DNA of 64,000 nt from an uncultured Gammaproteobacteria bacterium (GTDB lineage: Bacteria; Patescibacteriota; Patescibacteriia; Magasanikbacterales; UBA922): NCBI GenBank assembly GCA_964612105.1, contig CAZTEU010000001.1, positions 147,437-211,436 on the forward strand, written 5' to 3'. The position numbers and the translations under genes were made by a program. Positions 2,822 to 56,856 of this stretch are shown in pieces; positions within the stretch are counted from its first letter, which is position 1, and each line of letters starts with the position of its first letter. The notes beneath the pieces are model-generated. The model did not search any database and was not told where the DNA came from. It saw only the letters and a program-made list of their open reading frames with translations.

Positions 2822-3238
2822 GTGAATACTATGGAATTTCAACACAGAGCATTAGGCCTGAAAGAGGATAAGAGTCTTGTGTACACAGCGATGTCTAAAT
2901 ATCTTTTCTACTTTAGGCAACATATATCCAAATATGTAATAGAACAAAAAAAGGTTCCTCTAAATCCCTTCATGATATTTGATTATTTCCTTTTAGATTC
3001 TGTGGACAGGGATTTAATAAGAGAGGGAAACAATAATCTGGTTAAGAGATCAGATGAGATATGGGTGTTTGGAAAAGTTTCTGATGGTGTTTTAGCAGAA
3101 ATAAGAATAGCCAAAGAGATGAACAAACCTGTACTATATTTCAATATTGCAAAATCAGGAAAGGTTACACCTCTAGATAAGGAACAAGTAGAGATGGAAG
3201 AAGATGTGGCACAATTCAAGGAAGAAATAACCAACTAA
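2822..3238 (+). CDS. hypothetical protein, possibly with a nucleoside 2-deoxyribosyltransferase-like fold
   Basis: 138-aa ORF 16 nt after era. The motif DEIWVFGKVSDGVLAEIRIAKEMNKPV resembles DUF4406/NDT-like proteins. The assignment is weak. Confidence 0.35.
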   Translation: MNTMEFQHRALGLKEDKSLVYTAMSKYLFYFRQHISKYVIEQKKVPLNPFMIFDYFLLDSVDRDLIREGNNNLVKRSDEIWVFGKVSDGVLAEIRIAKEMNKPVLYFNIAKSGKVTPLDKEQVEMEEDVAQFKEEITN

Positions 3239-5931: not shown

Positions 5932-6777
5932 CTATCGTTTGCCCTTCTCCTCCTCAGTGACATCGAAGGGCTTGATGTCGTTGAAGCCGGTATCCGCCTT
6001 GGTGCCCGGCAAGTTATTCACCACACCGACCTTGTTGAGCTCAGCGAGCGACACGTTGCCATAGCAGGTCGCTTTCACCCTTCTCTCCAGATTCATCCCG
6101 TACCCTTTCACGGTGGGAATATCCGAACGGCTCATGGTCTTGCAGAACTGCTCAACATCTCCTGGTCGGACATACTTGTGGTCTTTCTGGATGTACTTGA
6201 CATCGTGATTGACTGCATACGCCCAGTGTGCCGTCGTGAGAAACATCCTGGATAAAACACTCTCACTGGGCGATACCTTCTGCCAGGATTCGACCTTCTC
6301 GGCCAGCTTGTCCCATGCGACCATTTTGTGATAGGTATCGAGAACAACGCCGGTCACCCGTGTTGTGTACCTTCCGTCCCACGACATGTGTGGTTTGGTT
6401 GGATCTGGGATGATCTGCTTGACCGTGTTCGCATACCACGTCAAGAGGACTCTCCCCTTGCTGTAGTACTGACTCGGGACAACCTTGCCCTCCTCATCTT
6501 TCCGGAGCATCGTCCCAGCATCCGCACTGATCATGACCGAGATGCACTCAGCCACCTTCGGAGCGTGGAGTTGGTACTTCAGGACAGACTGGATCCGCTT
6601 GCTATACCCGTAGAACGCCACCTCCTTCGAGGGAACCTCGAAGTCAGCCAGGTTCATGTTGACGCACTGAAGCGTCTTGTTTGTGCCGTAGCCACCACCC
6701 ACCTGGGCAGCGCCACAGCCGATCATCAGGAACATCACGACGCCCATCAACAGGGCACCGAACAGTTTCTTCTTCAT
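5932..6777 (-). CDS. lipoprotein, hypothetical (GC-rich island)
   Basis: Start moved to the ATG at 6777 (MKKKLFGALLMGVVMFLMIGCGAA), which sits behind SD GGAGGAAG. The N-terminus is a signal peptide with lipobox LMIGC. ~56% GC in an AT-rich backbone. No recognisable domain. Confidence 0.6.
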   Translation of the reverse strand: MKKKLFGALLMGVVMFLMIGCGAAQVGGGYGTNKTLQCVNMNLADFEVPSKEVAFYGYSKRIQSVLKYQLHAPKVAECISVMISADAGTMLRKDEEGKVVPSQYYSKGRVLLTWYANTVKQIIPDPTKPHMSWDGRYTTRVTGVVLDTYHKMVAWDKLAEKVESWQKVSPSESVLSRMFLTTAHWAYAVNHDVKYIQKDHKYVRPGDVEQFCKTMSRSDIPTVKGYGMNLERRVKATCYGNVSLAELNKVGVVNNLPGTKADTGFNDIKPFDVTEEEKGKR

Positions 6778-7008
6778 CTTCTTCCTCCACACGGATTACG
6801 CCCCGTGATGCGCCTTTGGTCGACAGCTTATCGACACGGAGTATGATATTTAATCAATTAAATACCCCACTCTATGCCCAAATCTGACCGCGTATAATAG
6901 CACATTATTCCACTTTTGTCAAGTTAATCCACATATCCTTAGTTTATTATAGTACGAGTGCCTTTTTTTTGCTATAATATAACAAAATACTCCCCTGAGT
7001 TAATTTTT

Positions 7009-7551
7009 ATGAATCCAAACCAACAACAAGTTCCTGAGGTGACTATACCAGCTGGTCTAGCACAAGAAAAAAAAGGGGTCACTCCCCCATCTAGTCCAGA
7101 GATAGGAGTGAAGACACCTCAACAAGAAAAAACACCTTTCCAGGAAATGCAGAGTAAACCTCAGGCAGAGCAAGAGGGAAATTTTTTAGATGAGGCAATT
7201 GACGGATTAAAGAAAACACTAAAAAAACCAAAGAAGAAAAAGGGGGTTAATATTCCTCAGGTAAGAGATGAGCTTACAATGAAAGTGGAGACAATAATGG
7301 AGGATGGATTAAAAGATGCTTTTACAGAAATGACACCTGTACAAAAACAGGAGTTTAAGATAAAAGGAGAGCAGACAGCTATACAAATACGTCAACTTCT
7401 TGGGGTTACCAGAGTAAAAGTAAAATCCGTTTTTAAGCTACTTGTTGAATGGCTAAAATTATTACCTGGAGTGAATAGATTCTTTATTGAACAAGAAGCA
7501 AAGATTAAAGCAGATAAAATTATTTCATTAAAAAACCATCACGATTCTTAA
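7009..7551 (+). CDS. hypothetical protein (P/Q/K-rich N-terminus, helical C-terminus)
   Basis: Start taken at MNPNQQQ, because the extended -10 TGCTATAAT at 6969-6977 lies inside the longer track ORF. It ends 14 nt before the VirB4-like gene, so it is probably co-transcribed with it. Confidence 0.45.
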   Translation: MNPNQQQVPEVTIPAGLAQEKKGVTPPSSPEIGVKTPQQEKTPFQEMQSKPQAEQEGNFLDEAIDGLKKTLKKPKKKKGVNIPQVRDELTMKVETIMEDGLKDAFTEMTPVQKQEFKIKGEQTAIQIRQLLGVTRVKVKSVFKLLVEWLKLLPGVNRFFIEQEAKIKADKIISLKNHHDS

Positions 7552-7564
7552 CCAAGGCCCGGTT

Positions 7565-10138
7565 ATGTTTCCTTTGTTGCAGTTTGTCGCGACTCCACAA
7601 CCTACAGAGATAAACCCTTTTGGAAATGAGGTCCTTTTAATTGTACTACTTGCTTTTATTGTAGTTGGAGTAATCGTTGGAATCTCATATATTCTTAGAG
7701 CTGTATTTCGCTCACAATCCAGATCTTCTAAAGCGTTCAATCGTGCAGTATTAAAAGTCCTAGTACCCAAAGAAAGAAAATCTGAGGGACAAGGTGGGCA
7801 GGTGGGTCAAGATGACAGGCTAGAACAAATCAAGGAGGAGATTGCTATTACAGAGAATTTCTTTGCGTCTATTGCTGGACTTAGGGCGGGAAGAGGTATT
7901 ATGAACTGGTTACGTGGTCGTGTTGATCATTTTTCTTTTGAGATAGTTGTCCACAACCAACAAATCTACTTCTATGTAGATTTACCTGTTAAAAGAAGGC
8001 AGTTTTTTGAACAGCAAATACATGCACAATTTCCTCATGCACAGATTGAAGAAATTACAGATTACAATATATTTTCAGAGAAGAGTGTAATAGTGGGCTC
8101 ATATCTAACAAGTGCACAGAGAAACGAGTTTCCCTTTAAGACGTACACTAGTCAAGAATCAGATCCGATGTCTGGAGTACTCAATGCACTTTCCAAAATA
8201 AATGAGCCAGGAAACTCAGCTGCTATACAGTTTGTTGTACGAAGCTCCAATAAAGTATGGAGGCGCAAGGGTGTGAAATTGGTAAGAGATGTAAAGAAGG
8301 GTCGCAAGTTTGAAAAAGTTGCTGCACAATCTGGATTTAACAAAGCACTTGGTCATTTTGGTGATTTCATAAGTGATCATATTTTCCATAAACCAAATGA
8401 TCCAGGTAAGGAAGAAAAATCATATCAGTTATCACCAATGGAGGAGGAAATGCTTAAAGGAATAGAAGAAAAACTAAGCAAAGGAGGAATGGATATTACT
8501 ATTCGTATACTAAGTGTCTCAAATAACGAAGAAAGTGCGCAATTGGGGTTAGATAACTTGATAGCAAGCTTTAACCAGTACAATTACTATAGGTATGGTA
8601 ATAGCTTTAAGGCAATAATGCCTCGTAATCAGTCGCTGATTATACGTGATTTTATATATCGCACATATGATGAGAAAAGAGGTTTTGTGGTAAATACAGA
8701 AGAACTTGCCTCTATGTGGCACCTTCCTCTACATTCTACAGAGGCGCCAAATATTAAGTGGTTGTCTGGGCGTAAATCTCCCCCTCCAGCAAACCTTCCA
8801 AAAGAAGGGCTAAAGCTTGGTTATGTGCAATACAGGGGTTCCAAGACAGATGTATTTATGAAAGAGGCTGACAGAAGGCGTCATCTGTATGTAATTGGTA
8901 AGTCTGGTAGTGGTAAATCTGTCTATATAGCTAACTTAGCAATACAGGACATAAAGGATGGTAAGGGGGTTGGTGTAATAGATCCACATGGTGATTTGGT
9001 AGAAGATATATTAGCTCATGTACCGAAGGAGCGTGCAGATGATGTTGTTGTTTTTGATCCTTCAGACATGGACAGGCCTATTGGTCTTAATATGTTGGAG
9101 GCAGGAACAGAAGATCAGAAAGATTTTGCTGTACAAGAAATGATATCTATATTCTATAAGCTATTCCCTCCTGAGATGATAGGTCCAATGTTTGAACATC
9201 AGATGAGAAACGTAATGCTTACACTAATGGCAGATATTAAGAATCCTGGAACTGTTATAGATATACCTAGAATGTTTACAGATGATAACTATGTAAAGGT
9301 ATACCTGAAAAACCTACGAGATCCTGTTGTTAGAGCGTTCTGGGAAAAAGAAATGGCAAAGACGAGCGACTTCCACAAATCAGAAATGCTTGGATATCTT
9401 GTCTCTAAGGTTGGTAGATTTGTAGGAAATGAGATGATGAGGAATATCATGGGACAACAGAAGTCTGGTTTTGACTTCCGTGAAATAATGGACAACAAGA
9501 AAATATTGTTAGTTAACCTTGCAAAAGGTAAGACTGGTGAAATTAATGCTAAACTGTTAGGTCTTATTGTTGTAGCAAAACTACAGATGGCTGCCATGGG
9601 AAGAGCAGATATGGCTCAGGAGGACAGGCATGATTTCTACTTATATATAGATGAGTTCCAAAACTTTATTACAGATTCTATATCTACAATACTTTCTGAG
9701 GCTAGAAAGTACAGGTTAGATCTTATTATTGCTCATCAGTACATGGGTCAGTTGGTAGACGATAAAGGAAGCGCAGACGTACGTGATGCTGTGCTTGGAA
9801 ACGCAGGAACACTTTGTGTTGGTCGTATTGGTCCTGATGATGCAGAAATACTTGCGAAAGAATTTGCTCCTGTATTTGGTTCTTATGACCTACTCAATCC
9901 CCCACCATTTTCTTATTACACTAAATTACTTATTGACGGAAAGGCAAGTAAACCTTTTAACATGGGAGCATACCCTCCTATATCCGGCAATAAGGACCTT
10001 GCAGACGCAATTAAACAGCTCTCTCGCCTAAAATATGGACGTGACAGAAGCATTGTTGAAGAAGAGATAATGGACAGAACAAAGCTTGGAGAGCCAGAGA
10101 TGCAGGGTAAAACAGACGCAGCAGAAGCAACACTATGA
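7565..10138 (+). CDS. VirB4/TrbE-like type IV secretion ATPase (HerA-FtsK superfamily), fused N-domain + ATPase
   Basis: 857 aa. N-terminal TM helix. Walker A YVIGKSGSGKS, Walker B LYIDEFQNF, then EARKYRLDLIIAHQY (an R-K...TQ/HQ-type motif). The N-terminal half is homologous to ORF 16508-17920 and the C-terminal half to ORF 57697-59496. Confidence 0.7.
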   Translation: MFPLLQFVATPQPTEINPFGNEVLLIVLLAFIVVGVIVGISYILRAVFRSQSRSSKAFNRAVLKVLVPKERKSEGQGGQVGQDDRLEQIKEEIAITENFFASIAGLRAGRGIMNWLRGRVDHFSFEIVVHNQQIYFYVDLPVKRRQFFEQQIHAQFPHAQIEEITDYNIFSEKSVIVGSYLTSAQRNEFPFKTYTSQESDPMSGVLNALSKINEPGNSAAIQFVVRSSNKVWRRKGVKLVRDVKKGRKFEKVAAQSGFNKALGHFGDFISDHIFHKPNDPGKEEKSYQLSPMEEEMLKGIEEKLSKGGMDITIRILSVSNNEESAQLGLDNLIASFNQYNYYRYGNSFKAIMPRNQSLIIRDFIYRTYDEKRGFVVNTEELASMWHLPLHSTEAPNIKWLSGRKSPPPANLPKEGLKLGYVQYRGSKTDVFMKEADRRRHLYVIGKSGSGKSVYIANLAIQDIKDGKGVGVIDPHGDLVEDILAHVPKERADDVVVFDPSDMDRPIGLNMLEAGTEDQKDFAVQEMISIFYKLFPPEMIGPMFEHQMRNVMLTLMADIKNPGTVIDIPRMFTDDNYVKVYLKNLRDPVVRAFWEKEMAKTSDFHKSEMLGYLVSKVGRFVGNEMMRNIMGQQKSGFDFREIMDNKKILLVNLAKGKTGEINAKLLGLIVVAKLQMAAMGRADMAQEDRHDFYLYIDEFQNFITDSISTILSEARKYRLDLIIAHQYMGQLVDDKGSADVRDAVLGNAGTLCVGRIGPDDAEILAKEFAPVFGSYDLLNPPPFSYYTKLLIDGKASKPFNMGAYPPISGNKDLADAIKQLSRLKYGRDRSIVEEEIMDRTKLGEPEMQGKTDAAEATL

Positions 10139-14547: not shown

Positions 14548-14618
14548 TCGGAGATCGTCTAATGGTAGGACTCCAGGTTCTGGTCCTGGCTATCGGGGTT
14601 CGAATCCCTGTCTCCGAA
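14548..14618 (+). tRNA. tRNA-Gln (anticodon CUG)
   Basis: Cloverleaf with acceptor TCGGAGA/TCTCCGA (U1-A72), D-arm GTCT-AATGGTA-GGAC, anticodon stem CCAGG/CCTGG with loop TTCTGGT, and T-arm CGGGG-TTCGAAT-CCCTG. Discriminator A. CCA is not encoded. Confidence 0.8.
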
Positions 14619-14622
14619 CAAT

Positions 14623-24148: not shown

Positions 24149-24964
24149 TTATCCCTTCTTGAGACGCAGAATTCGGTCCGTGCTGTGGAAGTTGTTGTCG
24201 AGATTGTCCCAGCGCTGTCTCCAGTGATCCGCGTGCCAGTAGACACAGCTGACGAGCTTGTTGTGGTCAGGGTTACGCCAGTCTGTGAAGACAAACACTA
24301 CCCTGTCTCGGAGCACGATGGGGATCTCGTCTTGGTGCTCCAACAAGTGCCGACCATGCTTTTCGCCGAGATGGGCATACCCAATCGTGGCACGCGCGAC
24401 CATGGCTTCGCCTCTGACACTCTCCTCACTATCTTCCAGGAAGTTGATAATCTCGTAGGTGCGGTCACCAACGGTCATCTCGGTCGGGAGAGCATCCTCT
24501 TCCTGCTTGAGACGCAGGATTCGGCTGATATTGCGGAACTGGTAGCCAATCCATTGCCATTGTCTCATCCAGTGTTTGCCATTCCAGTGTATGGTGCAAA
24601 TGTCCCCAGGATTGGCGTAATCGCGACGCCAGTTCGTGAAGACGAAGGTATTACCCCGTAGCTCGACTGGAATCTGGTGTTGGTGTTTCAGCAGATGTTC
24701 GCCTGCTTCCTTATTGGGGTTTGCGTCAATCTCGCTCACACGCCTCACCACTGTCTGACCATCTACCGACCCCTCTCCTTCCTCGTGGAACCCGAGAATC
24801 TCGTAGGTGCGGTCACCAACGGTCATCTCCTGAGGAAGGGAATCCCGGAAGAGCTTGTCGCAGAACCTCTTGACCTTCCCGGTGTTTTCCGGGTTGATCA
24901 GGTCTTCGAATCTCTTTTCACCCAACTGCTCCCGCAGATGAGCCAATTTACGCAAGGTGCCCAT
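24149..24964 (-). CDS. hypothetical protein with two tandem ~115-aa repeats (GC-rich island)
   Basis: PQEMTVGDRTYEILGFHEEGEGSV...FVFTNWRRDYANP...RILRLKQ is repeated as PTEMTVGDRTYEIINFLEDSEESV...FVFTDWRNPDHN...RILRLKK. ATG at 24964 sits behind SD GGGTGAGGAGAG. The track's GTG at 24970 is rejected. Confidence 0.5.
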   Translation of the reverse strand: MGTLRKLAHLREQLGEKRFEDLINPENTGKVKRFCDKLFRDSLPQEMTVGDRTYEILGFHEEGEGSVDGQTVVRRVSEIDANPNKEAGEHLLKHQHQIPVELRGNTFVFTNWRRDYANPGDICTIHWNGKHWMRQWQWIGYQFRNISRILRLKQEEDALPTEMTVGDRTYEIINFLEDSEESVRGEAMVARATIGYAHLGEKHGRHLLEHQDEIPIVLRDRVVFVFTDWRNPDHNKLVSCVYWHADHWRQRWDNLDNNFHSTDRILRLKKG

Positions 24965-25198
24965 TTGCACCTCTCCTCACCCTTTTGTACAAAGGGTTCA
25001 CTCCTCACCAACATGACGAAGAGGAAGACGAGTTGGTGTTCAGGTCTTCTCTTTGCATACCTAAGTAAATATACACAGAGAAGACCTAAACCATAGTATT
25101 TTAAAGAGCTATTTGACTGGTCAGATTAACATTAAATCACTATTTTGTCAATATAACCTAATTATATAACATATTTACCTAATTCTAGCTATAAAGTA

Positions 25199-25227: not shown

Positions 25228-25260
25228 ATGCTCACACCCCAAGGGGAAGGAGAGAAAATC

Positions 25261-25767
25261 ATGAGTAAATCACTCAACATCGTCATCACTTCCGACCATG
25301 CAGGTCTGGATATGCGGGCGGCAATCTGCGCTTACCTGCGCAAAGAAGGTCATGCAGTCATCGACCAGGGTCCACAGCCGGGAGAGGTTGTAGACTACCC
25401 GGAGTACGCGGAGGCTGCAGTACAAGCAATGCTCTGTGACATTCCTAGCGATGTGGACGACAGCATCAAGATCGATCTGGTCATCCTCATCTGCGGTACA
25501 GGCATCGGTATGAGCATCGTCGCGAACAAGTTCAGCGGTGTCAGTGCAGCTCTGGTACACGACCATCTCACCGCGAAATTCGCGAAAGAGCACAACAACG
25601 CGAACGTGCTCTGCCTGGGCTCACGTGTGACAGCTGATGTTGTCGCAGTCGACTGCGTTGCCACGTTCCTCGAGGCAAAGTTCGAAGAGCGCCACCAACG
25701 ACGCATTGACATGATCATGGACATCGAGGTGAACGGTTCATGTATCGGATCTTTGATGTCTGACTGA
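25261..25767 (+). CDS. rpiB: ribose-5-phosphate isomerase B
   Basis: MSKSLNIVITSDHAG...CGTGIGMSIVANK matches RpiB/LacAB. Start moved to ATG 25261, 8 nt after SD AAGGGGAAGGAGAG. GC-rich. Confidence 0.8.
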   Translation: MSKSLNIVITSDHAGLDMRAAICAYLRKEGHAVIDQGPQPGEVVDYPEYAEAAVQAMLCDIPSDVDDSIKIDLVILICGTGIGMSIVANKFSGVSAALVHDHLTAKFAKEHNNANVLCLGSRVTADVVAVDCVATFLEAKFEERHQRRIDMIMDIEVNGSCIGSLMSD

Positions 25768-27224: not shown

Positions 27225-27357
27225 AATATCCTTTACTTTTTCTCTATTTATGCTAACCTAATTACATGAACGTATTTAATGTATTCACAACAAAGAAGAC
27301 CAAGAAGGTCCTCCCTCGGAAGAGGTAGTTGTGTTGCATTAGAAAAAATTGCTAACC

Positions 27358-27384
27358 AGCCACCTCAACCGAGGTGGTTTTTCT
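27358..27384 (+). terminator. intrinsic terminator/attenuator hairpin
   Basis: CCACCTC-aacc-GAGGTGG followed by TTTTT. No gene ends here on the + strand. Confidence 0.5.
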
Positions 27385-27399
27385 ATTGGGGGTGGGAAA

Positions 27400-27612
27400 G
27401 ATGAGTGGGAATCAGGAACATGGCGCAGTCTCAAACGACAAGGACGGGAACGATCTCTTTCCAGGAGATGTTGTCTGGCCAGGATGGGCACTGTTCGCAG
27501 GAAGACGAGGGGTTGTGCAAGAATCCACATACAGCTCTGCTATCGTTCATCTCGTGGAGGAGGGTGGTACAGCAAGTGGAACAATCCGCAGTTCCTCAGT
27601 ATCCAAACGCTG
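27400..27612 (+). other. GC-rich unit: either a 70-aa ORF with an SD, or a structured RNA
   Basis: GGGGGTGGGaaagATG, then MSGNQEHGAVSNDKDGNDLFPGDVVWPGWALFAGRRGVVQ... Three + frames are simultaneously open. Flanked by hairpin terminators at 27358-27384 and 27633-27674. Confidence 0.3.
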
Positions 27613-27632
27613 AGCAAGGAGGACACACAGCG

Positions 27633-28691: not shown

Positions 28692-29354
28692 TCATTTAGT
28701 TACTGTTGGAAGAGGTTTAGTAAGCAATATCTGCCACATCCCCTTTACTCGTGCAAATGTTTCTCTAATCTCCATAATAAAAACCGAATCATCCGTATAG
28801 CTATCTGCAGAAAAACCAACTGTATCTATCCCAAAGTTTTCGCAGAAAAATATAATTCTAGGCAGATGAAAGTCTTGAGATACAGCAATTACTGATTCTA
28901 ATCCATACACATGCTTTTCCCTGTAACAACTCTCGTATGTGCGGTATCCATGTGGATCTACAGATACATCATTTATGGGTATTCCATTGTCTATTGCGTA
29001 GCGCAACATAATGTTTACTTCGTCTGCACGCTTACCTCCATCATCACCTGTCATTATTAACTTCTTTACCTTTCCTTTTCTATATAAATCAATTCCAGCA
29101 TCTACTCTGGCCTTCTGCATATTACTTTGGGTACTTTTGTCTTCCATTCCACCACCAAATATTAGAGCGATATCACGTGAAGGAACATCTTCTACAGATG
29201 GGTGAATATTATTTCCATATGGGAATATTATTGCCCATGATATAACTATTAGAAGTAGACTAATCGACAGAAGAGCAACAGAAATAAACTGAAATACAAC
29301 CAAGGATAGGTCTTGGTTGGGTATGTGATTCTTTTTTGGGTTCCTAAATATCAT
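28692..29354 (-). CDS. SanA/YdcF (DUF218) family membrane protein
   Basis: N-terminal TM. ALIFGGG...MTGDDGG...VDPHGYRTYES matches the DUF218 core. Confidence 0.7.
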   Translation of the reverse strand: MIFRNPKKNHIPNQDLSLVVFQFISVALLSISLLLIVISWAIIFPYGNNIHPSVEDVPSRDIALIFGGGMEDKSTQSNMQKARVDAGIDLYRKGKVKKLIMTGDDGGKRADEVNIMLRYAIDNGIPINDVSVDPHGYRTYESCYREKHVYGLESVIAVSQDFHLPRIIFFCENFGIDTVGFSADSYTDDSVFIMEIRETFARVKGMWQILLTKPLPTVTK

Positions 29355-29459
29355 AAAATGTAGTTGAGAGATTATAGCAGATATTGTGTATTTTTCAAGT
29401 ACACATACTTTTCCACACTCCCCTAGACTTTATTTGTTTTATACTCTATACTTTTTCCA

Positions 29460-29690
29460 TACCCTTGAGGTATGGCGTCGTGCATGCGCGGATGTTGTCT
29501 TGCCACCAACCCTCATCGAGGGTAGGTCAGCAGATGCAGCCGTAGGAACTCTACTAATTATCAAGAGGTCCAGTCCTTGCTTTTTCTGCCCCGTCGATCA
29601 CCAAATAAGGCTTCGGGGCTCATCACGTAGGAGCGACTGACGGTTCTTAGGGGGATCTTAGTTGTGTACGACGCCCCCTCCATTTGACCA
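29460..29690 (+). ncRNA. candidate small structured RNA (~215 nt, GC-rich), identity unknown
   Basis: GC-rich block with no credible ORF. The 5' end GGCGTCGTGC (29466-29475) pairs with the 3' end GTACGACGCC (29668-29677) as a closing stem. Followed by terminator 29720-29744. Confidence 0.3.
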
Positions 29691-29719
29691 AAAAAGGTTT
29701 TTGTCCAAATGTTGTAAAA

Positions 29720-29744
29720 AAACGCTTAAATAAGCGTTTTTTTT
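29720..29744. terminator. bidirectional terminator
   Basis: A7-CGCTTA-aa-TAAGCG-T8. Confidence 0.65.
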
Positions 29745-29754
29745 ATATTCTCTA

Positions 29755-29783
29755 TTGACAGGTTGTCCTATTTCAAGTATAAT
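29755..29783 (+). promoter_or_regulatory. consensus sigma70 promoter (TTGACA-N17-TATAAT)
   Basis: TTGACAggttgtcctatttcaagTATAAT is a perfect -35/-10 pair with 17-nt spacing. It sits directly upstream of a GC-rich non-coding stretch. Confidence 0.7.
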
Positions 29784-29789
29784 CCCCAG

Positions 29790-30245
29790 TTGTTTCCTGT
29801 TAGAACTCCGTATAAGGAAGAACGATCTCACGGCTCGATCAAGTAGTTGAGGGGGGTAGAAAAGGAAGGACATAAGTCACCCTTCCTTAGAGGCCAACCA
29901 AAGCCACCCTTCTTCGTCCTCTGCATTGCAAGTCGAAAAAAAACAAAAGATCGAGTGTAAGTCCCTAGTACTCCAGTGATGATCGGCCCCTTATGGCGTT
30001 GAGTACGCGGAAATGATGGAGGTGTGTGTTCCCAAGCTGCTCGGGGTTCAATTCCTGAAAACTGTCGCTTTCTGGCTAAGGCCTGATTGTAGGATGACGG
30101 ACGAGACAAAACAGTGGAAAGTTCACTCCCCTTCTACGTGTACGGTAGCGACGTGCGGTTCTGTAGTCCTAATATTTGGATTACATTCCGCACGTCGCTG
30201 CCACACGTTCGACCATATAAACCTCATTAAGATGTGGTTTTTTGT
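29790..30245 (+). ncRNA. candidate ~455-nt GC-rich non-coding RNA, identity unknown
   Basis: Downstream of the perfect promoter. No ORF with SD or homology. Several GC stems (AAGGAAGG...CCTTCCTT at 29868-29896, and a 14-bp inverted repeat 30143-30157/30188-30202). Ends at T-run 30235-30249. Confidence 0.35.
30143..30202 (+). repeat. 14-bp inverted repeat (stem-loop with 30-nt loop)
   Basis: GGTAGCGACGTGCGG ... CCGCACGTCGCTGCC. Confidence 0.7.
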
Positions 30246-30252
30246 TTGGTAA

Positions 30253-31605
30253 TTATACTACTATTGATTCACTATTCTTTGGAATATCTGTTTCTATTCC
30301 CAATTCATCATTTATTCTTCCTGATAACGCCTCTAGTGCCTTTGGTTCCCCATGAATACATATAACCTTACTTGGTTTTTCTTCAGCCTCACTAATCCAC
30401 CTTACAAGCTTATTTTGATCTCCATGAGCAGATAATGCACCTATTGCTTTGATAGTACTTTTTACCTCAACATCCTGCCCAAATATCTTTACGCTCTTAT
30501 GCCCATCATATATTTTTCTTCCACGAGTGCCTTTTGCTTGATAGCCAACAATAATAAGTGTGGACTTTGGATCCGATAAATACCTAAACAAGTGATGAAT
30601 AATACGCCCACCATTCATCATTCCTGCTCCTGCTATAATTATTTTTGGACCTTTTATGTTGTTTATTTTTTTAGACTCTTCTTTTGAGCGTGTAATTTGT
30701 AGCTGTGGAAACTTAAAAAAATCATCGCCTTTTGTGTATTGGTCACAAGCCTCCTTGTCATAGTATTCTGGATATTTCCTGTACACTGGCAATGCATCTA
30801 TAGCTAGTGGACTATCCAGGAATATGGGAACATCTGGAAGAGTTTTATCTTCCTCACTCATTTCATCCAGCTCATACAAAAGCTCTTGTGTGCGCTCCAT
30901 AGAAAATGCAGGAATCATGATTGTCCCACCACGGGCAACTCCTTCTTTTATTAAATCCAAAATAATCTTCTTTCTTTCTGTGATTGTTTCGTGAATACGA
31001 TCACCATATGTTGATTCACAAACTAATGTATCTATTTTTCCAAGACCTTCTGTTTCTTTAAGTATAGGCACGTTATCATTTCCAATATCCCCAGAAAAAG
31101 CAATTACTTTTCCATTTATATTGACTTCTATGAAAGAGGCTCCAAAAATATGACCAGCATCCTTAAATATTGCATAGTCCCCATCCCCAAGATCTACTTT
31201 TTCATGATAATCAATACCATTACATTGGGAAACAGACCTTTCTATTTCTTCCTCATTAAATAATATGGGTGTTTGATATTTCTTATTATTATAGGTCATT
31301 ATACGAAACGCATCCTGCCATAATAATTTTATCAGACCAAATGTTCCTTTTGTCATATGAATAGAACCTGTATACCCATCTTTTACTAACTTTGGAATCC
31401 TGCCGGAGTGGTCTGTATGAGCATGAGTTAACAAAACATGATCAATTGTGTGTGGGTCGAAAGGAAAATTATCAGCGTTTCTCCCTTCGTTAAAATCTCC
31501 TCCTTGAAACATACCACAATCAACTAAAATGCGCTTAGAGCCCGTATCAATTAGATGGCATGAGCCTGTAACTTCTTCTGCTGCTCCGAAAAAAGTGATT
31601 TTCAT
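30253..31605 (-). CDS. beta-CASP MBL-fold ribonuclease (RNase J / CPSF-like)
   Basis: MKITFFGAAEEVTGSCHLI, HAHTDHSG, a beta-CASP region and a C-terminal RMMBL-like part. Start taken at the second Met. Confidence 0.7.
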   Translation of the reverse strand: MKITFFGAAEEVTGSCHLIDTGSKRILVDCGMFQGGDFNEGRNADNFPFDPHTIDHVLLTHAHTDHSGRIPKLVKDGYTGSIHMTKGTFGLIKLLWQDAFRIMTYNNKKYQTPILFNEEEIERSVSQCNGIDYHEKVDLGDGDYAIFKDAGHIFGASFIEVNINGKVIAFSGDIGNDNVPILKETEGLGKIDTLVCESTYGDRIHETITERKKIILDLIKEGVARGGTIMIPAFSMERTQELLYELDEMSEEDKTLPDVPIFLDSPLAIDALPVYRKYPEYYDKEACDQYTKGDDFFKFPQLQITRSKEESKKINNIKGPKIIIAGAGMMNGGRIIHHLFRYLSDPKSTLIIVGYQAKGTRGRKIYDGHKSVKIFGQDVEVKSTIKAIGALSAHGDQNKLVRWISEAEEKPSKVICIHGEPKALEALSGRINDELGIETDIPKNSESIVV

Positions 31606-31695
31606 AATGGAAAAATTAGTGAAAATAATGTACAATTACATATATAATACATTGTCTATTAACTCTATACAAGACGGTGTTGTTCTGTTATACTC

Positions 31696-51980: not shown

Positions 51981-52571
51981 ATGAGTTCACGAATAGAGTC
52001 GCCAAGCAAGAAAGACCTCAGAGAGGTATCGAATGCTTTCAAGATCACAGAGAACTGGCCAAAACCTGGTGTTACCTTCCGCTGTGTCAGCGGTGTGCTG
52101 GAGTCACCAAAACTTCGACGAATGATGAACATGGCGCTGTCAAAAAGGATCCAGGAAATGACGCCAGATGTCGTTGTGCTCCTCGATTCACGAGGCTTCC
52201 TGCTCACTCCAGCGGTAGACCTCCTCTGTCTGCCAGTTGTCATGGCGCGCAAGGCTGGCAAGCTACCACCACCATGCGTCGCTTACACTTACGACTTGGA
52301 ATACGGAACAGCGACCATCGAGCTACAGAGGCAGGCTTTCCACAAAACCAGCAGGGATATGGCTTCCCGTGGTATGAGTGGACCACCAAGAGTGGTGATC
52401 GCTGATGACGTCCTCGCAACTGGGGGCACTGTACTGGCAACCAAAACCCTTGTGGAACAGTTGGAATGCACAGTGGCAGGATACGTGTTCATCGCAGAGC
52501 TCAATGGACTTGGAGGGTCAAATAGGCTCGCCACAAAGTCCACACCTGTCGAGTCACTCTTTCGTTTCTAG
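51981..52571 (+). CDS. apt: adenine phosphoribosyltransferase (GC-rich island)
   Basis: PRTase PRPP-binding loop VVIADDVLATGGTV and APRT-like N-terminus ITENWPKPGVTFRCVSGVLESPKL. SD GGAGGG sits 6 nt upstream. Confidence 0.7.
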   Translation: MSSRIESPSKKDLREVSNAFKITENWPKPGVTFRCVSGVLESPKLRRMMNMALSKRIQEMTPDVVVLLDSRGFLLTPAVDLLCLPVVMARKAGKLPPPCVAYTYDLEYGTATIELQRQAFHKTSRDMASRGMSGPPRVVIADDVLATGGTVLATKTLVEQLECTVAGYVFIAELNGLGGSNRLATKSTPVESLFRF

Positions 52572-52583
52572 GGAGGAAGCAAA

Positions 52584-53177
52584 ATGTCCAAGGAAAGAGA
52601 AATCGACCAAATCGATACCCTCCTGACCGCAGAGGAAATCGCAGAGCGTGTTGAGAAGATCGGTAAGCAGATCTCTCTCGACTACAGAGGTAAGTTGGAC
52701 GGCCAACCACTCATCCTCATCTGTGTACTCAAAGGTTCGTTTATCTTCACAGCCGACCTGATGCGTGCCATCGATGAGGACATTCCGGTAATCGTTCAGT
52801 TCATCGCTGTGAGTTCCTACGAGGGGAAAACCACCAAATCAAGTGGTGCTGTTCGTCTCGCATACGACCTCCGTGAAAACATCGAAGGACGAGACTGCAT
52901 CATTGTAGAGGACATCGTTGACACCGGATTGACGGTGAAGTACCTTCTAGATCTGTTTGGGGCACGCAAACCGCGTTCACTGCGAGTCTGTACACTCCTC
53001 CACAAGCCGTCGCGTGAAAAGGTCAAAGTGCCACTGCAATATGTCGGCTACACAATCGAGAACAAGTTCGTTGTTGGTTGCGGTCTGGACTACGACCAGC
53101 TACTACGTGGACGAGGAGACATTGGAGAGCTGGTCTTCAAAGACGAAGGGGAAGAGGGCAGTCCTGAGGGAGGCTAG
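52584..53177 (+). CDS. hpt: hypoxanthine-guanine phosphoribosyltransferase (GC-rich island)
   Basis: LKGSFIFTADL...IVEDIVDTGLTVKYL...LLHKPSR...GCGLDY. SD GGGAGGAAG. Confidence 0.8.
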   Translation: MSKEREIDQIDTLLTAEEIAERVEKIGKQISLDYRGKLDGQPLILICVLKGSFIFTADLMRAIDEDIPVIVQFIAVSSYEGKTTKSSGAVRLAYDLRENIEGRDCIIVEDIVDTGLTVKYLLDLFGARKPRSLRVCTLLHKPSREKVKVPLQYVGYTIENKFVVGCGLDYDQLLRGRGDIGELVFKDEGEEGSPEGG

Positions 53178-54855: not shown

Positions 54856-56697
54856 TCAGATGCAGACCTGGGTAGGCCTTCCAATGGTCTTGTAGAAAAA
54901 CCACTCGATCCCGAATGCACAACCCTTGCCGTTCTTGTAGTCACAGCTCTGATCCTTGGGGTCGCTGTTGTCGCACTCAACACAGAACTTCTGGTTTTTC
55001 TTCTCGGCTGCCCAGTAGACAGTAGCACACTGCTCACCGAACTTTGACCCCTTGCAGTCCTTGTCGGCTCCACAGCAACCAAAGTCCTCATGGTGACATT
55101 TGCCGTTGAGATCACAGTAGTCCGCGGTGCAGACCTTGCCATCAGAGCAGTCCTTGTTGACCTTGCACAGCTTACATCCAGCGATTGGTTTGTATTGACA
55201 CCCATTCGTCTTGTTGCAGGAGTCTGTTGTGCACAGATCCCCGTCATCGCATGACAATTCCTTGCCTGTACAGATACTTCCCTTGCACTTGTCGTTGAGG
55301 GTGCAGACGTTCATGTCTGTGCAAATTGCACCATCGTCCATCGGGATGAAGGTGCACTTGCCGGTCTTCTGGTCACAGGAGTCCTTGGTGCAAGGGTTCT
55401 TGTCCACACACTCCACTCCCATGCCAAGACACTTGCCGTCCTTGCATCCATCGCTGGTCGTGCAAGAATCGTTGTCGTTGCAGTCGATACCATTCTGGGA
55501 TGGTGTGAAGGCACAATCTCCAGTCTTGGAGTCGCAGAAATCCTTGGTGCATGGATTGTTGTCTTCACACACCTTTGTGGTTTTCGTGATGCAGACCCCA
55601 CTGATGCACTTTTCCACAGTGCAGACGTCGCTTTCCTTGCACTTCTTCATCTCTGTGATCTTGCAACCCTTGCTTGTGCAGACCATCTTCTCGATGCACG
55701 ACTGAGCGTCGACTTTGCACTGATCGTGGTCTGGGCTGTGAGCACACTTCCCTGTTCCAAGAACGCACGAGTCGATGGTGCATGCGATTCCATCCTTGCA
55801 GTCGACAGACTCGTTCTTGCACTTGCTGTTGGCTGTGCAGGTGTCGGTGGTGCAGAGGTTCTTGTCATCACAATCACCTGACTTGGTGCACTCGCAAACG
55901 TTGATGCCTTTGGTGCACGTGTTCTTGATGCACTGATGATTGACTGTGCAAGAATCCTCGTCATCGCACTCGACGTCTGTAGAGCAACAGTCCTCGATCT
56001 CCTCGTGTATGCACTCTTTCAAGGTTTCCAAATCGCAGGAGTCTGCAGTACAAGGTTTGCCGTCGTCGCAGGACTTTTGGTTCACAGTGAACACACACTT
56101 CCCGCTCTCGAAGACGCATAGATCGTCTGTGCAATCAACCCCGTCGTCGCAAATGACATTGTCCGTGTTCACACAAAGACTGTCCTGACATACGTCGACG
56201 GTGCAGAGATTCTCATCCAAATCACACACATTGCCAATCGACTTGTACACGCAACCCTTGCCTGGATCGCATGAATCGTCCGTGCAGACATTGTCGTCGT
56301 TGCAAACCTTCCACGAATCCATGTCTCCGACACACTTCCCGCTTTCGAGATCGCACTTGGAAATCTCGGTGCAGGAGTTGTTATCATCACAGGTCGCGGT
56401 GTTTGGCATATGCACACAGCCGACATCTTCTTCGCAGACATCTTTGGTGCAAATCTTGCCGTCGTCGCATTTGTCGGGGACGTAGTCGCACTTGTTGTTG
56501 CTGTTGCATTTGCCAATCCAGCAACTCTTGATGCAATCATCCTTCGTCTCACAGAAACCAGGAGGAAGTTGTGTATCCTCAGAGCCCTGATCTGCAAAGG
56601 TAGCAGCGTCAGCCGGCCCTTTGACCGAATCTTCGCTACATGAAATTGAGAGGAAAATCACCACGAACATCGTGATGATGAGGTCCCGGTTCATCAT
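54856..56697 (-). CDS. giant cysteine-rich repeat lipoprotein/secreted protein (GC-rich island)
   Basis: Start at MMNRDLIITMFVVIFLSISC, 7 nt after SD AAGGAG. Dozens of repeats of the form C-x-D-x-N/D-x-C-T-x-D-x-C-D-x-x-T/S-G-x-C, about 18% Cys. Resembles Myxococcus-type cysteine-rich repeats (inference). Confidence 0.65.
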   Translation of the reverse strand: MMNRDLIITMFVVIFLSISCSEDSVKGPADAATFADQGSEDTQLPPGFCETKDDCIKSCWIGKCNSNNKCDYVPDKCDDGKICTKDVCEEDVGCVHMPNTATCDDNNSCTEISKCDLESGKCVGDMDSWKVCNDDNVCTDDSCDPGKGCVYKSIGNVCDLDENLCTVDVCQDSLCVNTDNVICDDGVDCTDDLCVFESGKCVFTVNQKSCDDGKPCTADSCDLETLKECIHEEIEDCCSTDVECDDEDSCTVNHQCIKNTCTKGINVCECTKSGDCDDKNLCTTDTCTANSKCKNESVDCKDGIACTIDSCVLGTGKCAHSPDHDQCKVDAQSCIEKMVCTSKGCKITEMKKCKESDVCTVEKCISGVCITKTTKVCEDNNPCTKDFCDSKTGDCAFTPSQNGIDCNDNDSCTTSDGCKDGKCLGMGVECVDKNPCTKDSCDQKTGKCTFIPMDDGAICTDMNVCTLNDKCKGSICTGKELSCDDGDLCTTDSCNKTNGCQYKPIAGCKLCKVNKDCSDGKVCTADYCDLNGKCHHEDFGCCGADKDCKGSKFGEQCATVYWAAEKKNQKFCVECDNSDPKDQSCDYKNGKGCAFGIEWFFYKTIGRPTQVCI

Positions 56698-56856
56698 CTC
56701 AGCTCCTTCTTGACTGCACTTGGCAGTACTGTTGCGCACACGAATACAAATGGTCAGCTTGAGCTAACACACACAATATCCATAAGATACTCTGTGAGCT
56801 AGCCCAAAGCATAGTATAAAAAGAACGCTGTTGTTCCTATTATAGGAAAACAGCTA

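Follow-up and report, generated by a model that had tools for sequence, protein, structure and literature searches.

A 64,000-nt window of an uncultured bacterial genome (contig CAZTEU010000001.1) contains at 29460–29745 an element, here designated e1, that is most likely a small non-coding RNA gene of the plus strand, closed by an end-to-end helix and belonging to no described family. We infer that the function resides in the conserved 3' module, made up of purine motifs, a C/U-rich tail, a hairpin and a terminator. With regard to class, e1 may be a fast-evolving, trans-acting small regulatory RNA (sRNA) of the C-rich-seed type, an assignment that we favour tentatively. The host is a Candidatus Magasanikbacteria-like bacterium of the Patescibacteria (Candidate Phyla Radiation, CPR). 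Positions refer to the window, i.e., to the whole stretch of DNA that was analysed.

The 10-bp closing helix described in the sequence-only reading, GGCGUCGUGC (29474–29483) with GUACGACGCC (29666–29675), was recovered in both the minimum free energy (MFE) and the centroid folds and by the repeat finder (inverted repeat I5). With G-U pairs allowed, it extends to 13 contiguous pairs between a 5' strand GGCGUCGUGCAUG (29474–29486, plus strand) and a 3' strand UGUGUACGACGCC (29663–29675, plus strand). This terminal helix is designated P1. A 5'-3' helix of 13 contiguous pairs was reached in 3 of 1000 dinucleotide shuffles of e1. Three of the 13 pairs are G-U and can form on the plus strand only. 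The fold z-score of the plus strand was −5.3 with the terminator and −2.7 without it, and that of the minus strand was −3.4. The plus strand is the likelier RNA strand because of the G-U pairs in P1, the orientation of promoter and terminator, and the stronger z-score (−5.3 vs. −3.4). Thermodynamic support for e1 is moderate, and support for the terminal helix is stronger.

Relatives are characterized below by the identity of their neighbouring beta-CASP protein to the window copy: L001 (OZ246405.1; 77%), L056/L057 (75%), L058 (71%), and L060 (67%). Downstream of its beta-CASP gene, L001 carries the same tandem pair of RNA genes in unchanged orientation, in the order promoter, GC-rich RNA, tail hairpin, terminator, perfect promoter, second RNA, and terminator. 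The ends of its first RNA pair with each other in a 14-bp terminal helix (GGUGCUGUGUAACA / UGUUGCACAGCACC), and the longest 5'-3' helix comprises 15 contiguous pairs, a length found in 2 of 1000 shuffles. When P1 of the window and of L001 were aligned from the outer ends, all 13 shared positions were standard pairs in both; in five of the 13 pairs both partners had changed, and in two only one had. These paired changes, with pairing kept, are the chief argument for selection on the closing helix. Thus, the end pairing that the sequence-only reading had proposed to look for in relatives is kept in L001, and the comparison shows P1 as a helix apparently maintained by selection while its sequence and the RNA interior changed freely.

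A non-functional origin was also considered: e1 would then be a GC-rich relic in decay, for example part of a pseudogene or an old insertion of the miniature inverted-repeat transposable element (MITE) type with terminal inverted repeats at its bounds, which by chance has a promoter on one side and a terminator on the other. Concerted changes in such repeats would mimic compensatory ones, and a relic would agree with the unconserved interior of variable length, the empty site in L058, the frequency of GC-rich, apparently foreign segments in this genome, and the modest fold z-scores without the terminator (−2.7, −2.45, and −1.9). In a neutral relic, however, pairing would not have stayed perfect (13/13 and 14/14 pairs) with 7/13 positions changed, and several genomes retain the promoter, the tail hairpin, and the terminator. 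Inverted termini as in a MITE are present in e1, but no target-site duplication flanks the helix arms, neither the 64-kb window nor 63 related loci yielded a second or dispersed copy of e1, and no protein-level remnant was seen. We regard this origin as rather unlikely.

The gene has signals of its own outside the annotated genes, as judged by consensus matches. A promoter-like site, TAGACT-17-TATACT (9/12), lies at 29424–29452 on the plus strand and predicts a transcription start near 29459–29461. The equivalent promoter sites of homologous or analogous RNAs in relatives are stronger (TTGAC(T/G/A)-17/18-TAxxxT). A short 5' leader (29460–29473, plus strand) leads to an AUG at 29472–29474 that abuts the closing helix; the GAGG of the leader (29467–29470) is able to pair with CCUC at 29677–29680. 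At the other end lies an intrinsic terminator (29716–29744; repeat I3) with a 12-bp stem (29716–29727 / 29732–29743), an A-run before it and a T-run after it, which is bidirectional, as had been noticed from the sequence. The length of about 215 nt given in that reading was refined: the helix-to-helix body measures 203 nt, about 225–230 nt precede the 3' hairpins, and the likely transcript, from the predicted start near 29460 to 29744, is about 285 nt.

The same reading had called the block GC-rich and non-coding, and both properties hold. The G+C content was 0.547 for 29474–29676 and 0.537 for 29460–29690, compared with 0.384 for the window and 0.36–0.37 for the two flanking genes. Stop codons interrupt all six frames throughout 29360–30260, and a six-frame comparison of e1 with the syntenic regions of eight relatives revealed no conserved peptide. 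Since there is no open frame and no cross-species peptide conservation, e1 was marked as non-coding, and a coding or pseudogene reading was rejected on the same grounds. In this genome, high GC alone is no evidence for RNA because other GC-rich islands encode proteins. These further islands in the window (0.55–0.63 GC vs. 0.38 for the genome) are genuine protein genes and suggest compositional mosaicism or horizontal acquisition. They lie on the minus strand at 5932–6792, 24149–24970, and 54856–56739 and on the plus strand at 25228–25764 and 51981–53174; the products of the GC-rich islands are a lipoprotein, an internally repeated protein, a Cys-rich secreted repeat protein, RpiB, and two phosphoribosyltransferases.

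A small-protein mRNA, possibly leaderless, in which the AUG at the start of P1 opens a short frame, has only a very slight probability. The AUG abuts P1 or lies 2 nt upstream of it in the RNAs of the window, L001, and L056, about 5–20 nt from the −10 element, and another GC-rich island (27401–27613) does encode a small protein. The frames, however, comprise 17 aa (window), 19 aa (L056), and 71 aa (L001), and their peptides are unrelated in sequence and length (MASCMRGCCLATNPHRG, MPRGELLNVHTCTGAPYHR, MWCCVTSRTITDV...). In the window, only 1 nt separates GAGG from the AUG, which leaves too little room for a ribosome-binding site, and the AUG is buried in P1.

Searches for known RNA families returned nothing at e1. 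With Rfam 15 at gathering score, the sole match in the whole window was a tRNA-Gln at 14548. At E ≤ 10, the region 29300–30300 gave only sub-threshold matches sitting on the terminator and the tail hairpin, among them RsaF (30.4 bits vs. a cut-off of 60) and Phe/Thr leaders, and the models of 6S RNA, RNase P, transfer-messenger RNA (tmRNA), signal recognition particle (SRP) RNA, Y RNA, introns, and ribozymes did not match e1 at this threshold. Rfam searches of 11 related loci (L001, L002, and nine others) likewise gave no family match at the syntenic regions. The covariance-model search that had been suggested as a check therefore named no family, its only matches being driven by the terminator. 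ARAGORN (tRNA, tmRNA, and permuted tmRNA) found nothing at the site and only the tRNA-Gln (14548–14619) in the window. Phage records contained no match to e1, and we found in the literature no described regulatory RNAs or sRNAs of Patescibacteria/CPR bacteria that fit it. Group I introns occur in tRNA genes of Patescibacteria (PMC13011429); this candidate was rejected for e1, which has neither tRNA halves nor an intron-model match. The element is new to Rfam but of an ordinary type, namely a bacterial sRNA restricted to one lineage.

The MFE fold of the interior consists of four predicted hairpins on the plus strand (29488–29543, 29545–29571, 29574–29632, and 29633–29665). This result bears on a resemblance to 6S RNA, which the sequence-only reading had proposed and had suggested checking by folding. 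Under that explanation, e1 would mimic open promoter DNA and sequester RNA polymerase. Like 6S RNA (RF00013 and related families), e1 is GC-rich and stable-looking, its ends pair in a closing stem, and, as a free-standing gene with a strong terminator, it is probably transcribed independently. 6S RNAs are poorly conserved in sequence, and an Rfam match could have been missed. The MFE and centroid folds, however, predict a four-way multibranch inside the closing stem instead of a rod with a central bubble, no 6S family matched at E ≤ 10, and the conserved part of e1 is the 3' junction and tail, not a bubble. Length is a further difference: 6S RNAs are conserved at about 150–200 nt, whereas bodies of the e1 type measure about 230 nt (window), 215 nt (L056), and 565 nt (L001), a 2.5-fold change between orthologues that does not fit the fixed geometry of a polymerase mimic. 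Hence the 6S type is regarded as highly improbable, whereas the broader proposal of a small regulatory RNA kept its support as a free-standing RNA gene from synteny, the kept promoter and terminator, and the compensatory helix changes.

A very divergent housekeeping RNA (RNase P, tmRNA, SRP RNA, Y RNA, or a tRNA-like RNA) missed by the models in CPR bacteria is similarly improbable, if marginally less so. The 3' end following the helix reads ...CCUCCA, as in acceptor-like ends, and tool blind spots do exist in this clade, since both ARAGORN and Rfam missed a tRNA-like sequence that L008, a further Magasanikbacteria genome, carries at this site. The end of e1, however, is CCUCCA after a 6–7-nt overhang and not a tRNA-type NCCA. 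Neither a T-loop (GUUCRANYC) nor a tag reading frame was found within 29460–29745, and the RNase P core motifs (GGAAAGUCC of CR-I; ACAGAA...GGCUUA) are absent from the same interval, as is the SRP domain IV (helix 8) motif, which also had no model match. Housekeeping RNAs do not change 2.5-fold in length or lose all similarity between genomes with a 77%-identical neighbouring protein, and in L058 there is no RNA at the site. The terminal stem made from both ends, the variable interior, and the pyrimidine-rich 3' tail recall Y RNA/YrlA in particular, from which e1 differs in having no Rfam match and no tRNA-like module; no Ro/TROVE gene occurs among the neighbours examined.

Sequence conservation of e1 is confined to its 3' part; the 5' two-thirds of the interior cannot be aligned with relatives. 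The first RNA of L001 has about 565 nt before the 3' hairpins, compared with about 230 nt in the window (~2.5-fold), and the alignable region is the last ~60 nt only (nhmmer E = 0.002; local alignment z = 4.7, with 0 of 500 shuffles as good). As to the conservation in relatives asked for by the sequence-only reading, it thus holds for these ~60 nt and for the helix; the rest is unaligned and the L058 site is empty. The aligned part includes CAC(G/A)UAGGA(G/A), UAGGGGGAU, and CCCCCU after the helix. In the window, the purine-rich 3' module (29624–29656, plus strand) comprises CACGUAGGAG (29624–29633) and UAGGGGGAU (29648–29656), about 24 nt apart; its counterpart in L001 is CACAUAGGAA ... UAGGGGGAU, with both motifs inside the sole significant alignment. 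Expressed as CACRUAGGAR and UAGGGGGAU, with a spacing of ~23–24 nt, they are the best-conserved primary sequence between the two genomes. The UAGG part of the first motif is predicted to be unpaired, in a loop.

These motifs support the main rival to a seed sRNA, a protein-binding or sponge RNA, in which two GGA motifs next to P1 would titrate an RNA-binding protein in the manner of CsrB/RsmZ, or an RNA subunit of a small ribonucleoprotein (RNP). The conservation of both motifs and their spacing is in its favour, as is the loop position of UAGG; CsrA is a dimeric GGA binder, and a spacing of ~20–30 nt suits such a binder. A large structured body, too, is more in keeping with a scaffold or sponge RNA than with a seed sRNA. 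Unlike the many motifs of CsrB-type sponges, however, e1 has two only, and the L056 RNA has one clear GGAGGGA. There is no model match, no csrA was seen nearby, and a motif scan for CsrA and Hfq found neither in the 64-kb window of the ~1.2-Mb genome. No adjacent conserved protein partner was seen, the neighbours varying between genomes. We consider this explanation unlikely, although it deserves more weight than a relic.

The favoured sRNA reading draws on the region 3' of P1. Directly after the helix follows the C/U-rich, anti-Shine-Dalgarno-like tail CCCUCCAUU (29676–29684, plus strand); the 3' end reads ...GACGCCCCCUCCA (29670–29682), as described earlier. A small A/U-rich hairpin, CAUUUG...CAAAUG (29681–29711, plus strand), lies between tail and terminator, and a hairpin likewise precedes the terminator in L001, L002, and L060. 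L056/L057 have one promoter-to-terminator RNA of about 240 nt at the same site, next to uvrB. Its end helix in L056 is UGCCGCG(C)GGC / GCCCGCGGCA, with GGAGGGA directly before the 3' strand and the tail CCUCCAUUC directly after it. This helix alone was not significant in the shuffle test, and we treat the L056 RNA as a positional analogue of e1 that is probably also a homologue. L060 has in common the 14-mer CCCCGUCGAUCACC and the tail CCCUCCAUC, located there after a local hairpin. L056 and L060 were linked to e1 by position, architecture, and the short tail motif, which was used as an anchor. The tails after the equivalent helix are CCUCCAUUC in L056, CCCUCCAUC in L060, and CCCUUUUCUCUCUCCA in L001.

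Three features are common to the RNAs of the window, L001, and L056: the terminal helix P1; purine-rich motifs just inside P1 on its 3' side (CACRUAGGAR and UAGGGGGAU; GGAGGGA in L056); and, just outside P1, a C/U-rich tail, followed by a hairpin and the terminator. The core of this tail is the anti-Shine-Dalgarno sequence CCUCC; the window, L056, and L060 have tails of the CCUCC type, and the tail of L001 is C/U-rich. When the 5' strand of P1 was omitted, the G-rich motif folded onto the C-rich tail in all three RNAs, with the 3' strand of P1 in the loop. The pairing is GGGGG:CC(C/U)CC in the window and L001 and GGAGG:CCUCC in L056. This hairpin and P1 are mutually exclusive. In full-length ensembles, the tail was predicted to be mostly unpaired in L056 and L060 and partly unpaired in L001.

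In regulatory sRNAs, sequence typically changes fast whereas the promoter, the terminator, and short motifs are retained. We tentatively place e1 in this class because it turns over quickly, has a clamp helix and two 3' hairpins, and conserves short single-stranded motifs. Through its anti-Shine-Dalgarno-like tail, it would base-pair with G-rich ribosome-binding sites on target mRNAs, reducing either their translation or their stability, and P1 would serve as a stabilising clamp. The internal GGGGG/GGAGG motif can pair with the tail in place of P1, the two structures being mutually exclusive, and could thereby mask the seed. RsaE/RoxS-type sRNAs of Gram-positive bacteria resemble e1 in being free-standing genes with their own promoter and Rho-independent terminator, in carrying a C-rich anti-Shine-Dalgarno-like single-stranded motif beside stable hairpins, and in fast turnover outside the motifs. 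There is, however, no sequence or covariance-model similarity to them, the body of e1 is 2–5 times larger, and in place of their several C-rich loops e1 has a single C-rich tail that is predicted to be partly paired.

Several observations weigh against this sRNA reading. Any CCUCC is complementary to every Shine-Dalgarno site, and for this reason no specific target can be named for the tail. For the window RNA, folding predicts a tail that is mostly paired, with GAGG at 29467–29470 and within the tail hairpin. A body of 200–540 nt is large for a seed-type sRNA, and the four interior hairpins have no comparative support. No gene for an RNA chaperone (Hfq or CsrA) was found in the 64 kb by motif scan. 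Only one relative, L001, is a statistically supported homologue; the alignments of L056 and L060 to the window were no better than shuffles. Finally, L058, which is only slightly more distant, has no RNA at the site at all: its beta-CASP gene is followed, at 2984–3170, by 186 nt and then the DUF218 gene.

The weak conservation of e1 is a property of the element and not of evolutionary distance, since a leader at 27290–27400, used for calibration, is ~90% identical between the window and L058. Among 5.8 billion proteins, only five clusters reached ≥69% identity to the neighbouring protein, and the e1 family can therefore only be small. Identical copies of e1 occur in same-species contigs from several marine metagenomes. 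The organism was seen in ENA ERZ23498947 and ERZ23499038, JGI 3300007508, 3300009375, and 3300009376, and SRR8062341. An nhmmer comparison of all RNAs against all loci gave only self and same-species matches, and when metagenomes were scanned for the pattern of both conserved motifs, the 15 matches were all by chance and in unrelated contexts. An architecture scan for further family members was too noisy, and the MAFFT alignment of the 3' modules was too poor to be used with RNAalifold. The e1 family is so far limited to two or three closely related uncultured genomes.

L059, L062, L002, L018, and L004 have one or two near-consensus promoters at the site and unannotated RNAs of 160–550 nt, mostly GC-rich. 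From these comparisons, the site appears to be a recurrent home for RNA genes in the Magasanikbacteria clade, and the RNAs located there seem to evolve very fast in sequence and length and can be lost. In a broader and improbable view, the interval between the beta-CASP gene and uvrB would, across Magasanikbacteria, be a conserved RNA island with one to three independently transcribed, GC-rich, non-Rfam RNAs forming a CPR-specific structured class. It would cover e1, the neighbouring RNA gene e2 (29755–30245, plus strand), and the counterparts in L001, L002, L004, L018, L056, L059, L060, and L062. Here, e1 would be a module with an undescribed cellular role, e.g., an RNP component and not an ordinary base-pairing sRNA, or could alternatively stand in for regulators lost in reduced genomes. 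CPR bacteria have tiny genomes and few protein regulators. The uvrB gene adjoins the RNA in L001, L056, L060, and L062 and is absent from this position in the window.

The present significance of e1 is modest because the family is limited to two or three genomes. If verified, the e1 sRNA would offer a first entry point to RNA-based regulation in CPR bacteria, especially in view of its conserved terminal clamp, anti-Shine-Dalgarno-like tail, and neighbouring second RNA gene. Annotation based on Rfam leaves such promoter-to-terminator RNA genes unannotated in CPR genomes.

The flanking genes, both encoded by the minus strand, are DUF218 (28692–29354) on one side and, beyond e1 and e2, a gene of the beta-CASP/RMMBL metallo-beta-lactamase fold, RNase J/CPSF type (30253–31635). 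With all frames stopped in 29360–30260, the gene-free stretch between minus-strand genes noted in the sequence-only reading was borne out. The relatives of the beta-CASP protein were all from Candidatus Magasanikbacteria or Patescibacteria metagenome-assembled genomes (MAGs). Many MAGs (L001, L002, L013, and others) are titled "uncultured Gammaproteobacteria bacterium," yet they are Patescibacteria by gene content and similarity.

The promoter downstream of e1, recognized in the same reading, is a perfect TTGACA-17-TATAAT (12/12) at 29755–29783. It belongs to e2, whose body spans 29790–30245 and ends in its own terminator; e2 has no Rfam match. The second RNA of L001 and e2 have in common GGGGGUAGAAAA and a long perfect GC 3' hairpin (30144–30202 in e2), and similar 3' hairpins were found in L002, L004, and L062. 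Colinear direct repeats connect e1 and e2 (29471–29497 vs. 29992–30018, 70%, 521 nt; 29632–29647 vs. 30147–30162, 81%, 515 nt), which hints that e1 and the 3' half of e2 might derive from an old duplication. Paralogy of e1 with this half of e2 was rejected, the full-length alignment being no better than shuffles, and so was intermolecular pairing between them, for which RNAduplex energies were equal to those of shuffles.

The leader at 27290–27400 (plus strand) matches L058 5330→5215 (minus strand) with ~90% identity, is far better conserved than e1, and is without an Rfam match. An intrinsic terminator (CCAGCCACCU...AGGUGGUUUUU) closes the leader ahead of a 70-aa open reading frame (27401–27613) without a Pfam match, and the leader is a candidate riboswitch or attenuator.

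The tRNA-like sequence of L008, at 7360–7445 on the minus strand, shows a well-formed acceptor and T-arm (GGGGUUCGAUUCCCC, then UCCGUCC-ACC), and its anticodon loop appears to have 8 nt. About 150 nt upstream, at ~7530–7610 (minus strand), lies a promoter-driven RNA of ~80 nt that is largely complementary to the D/anticodon half of the tRNA-like sequence. In L062, two tandem promoter-driven RNAs (6110–5960 and 5930–5370, minus strand) begin with the same hairpin, CCUCCUCUUUCCACC...GG(A/U)UGA(A/G)(G/A)GAGGAGG, which points to local duplication of an RNA module.

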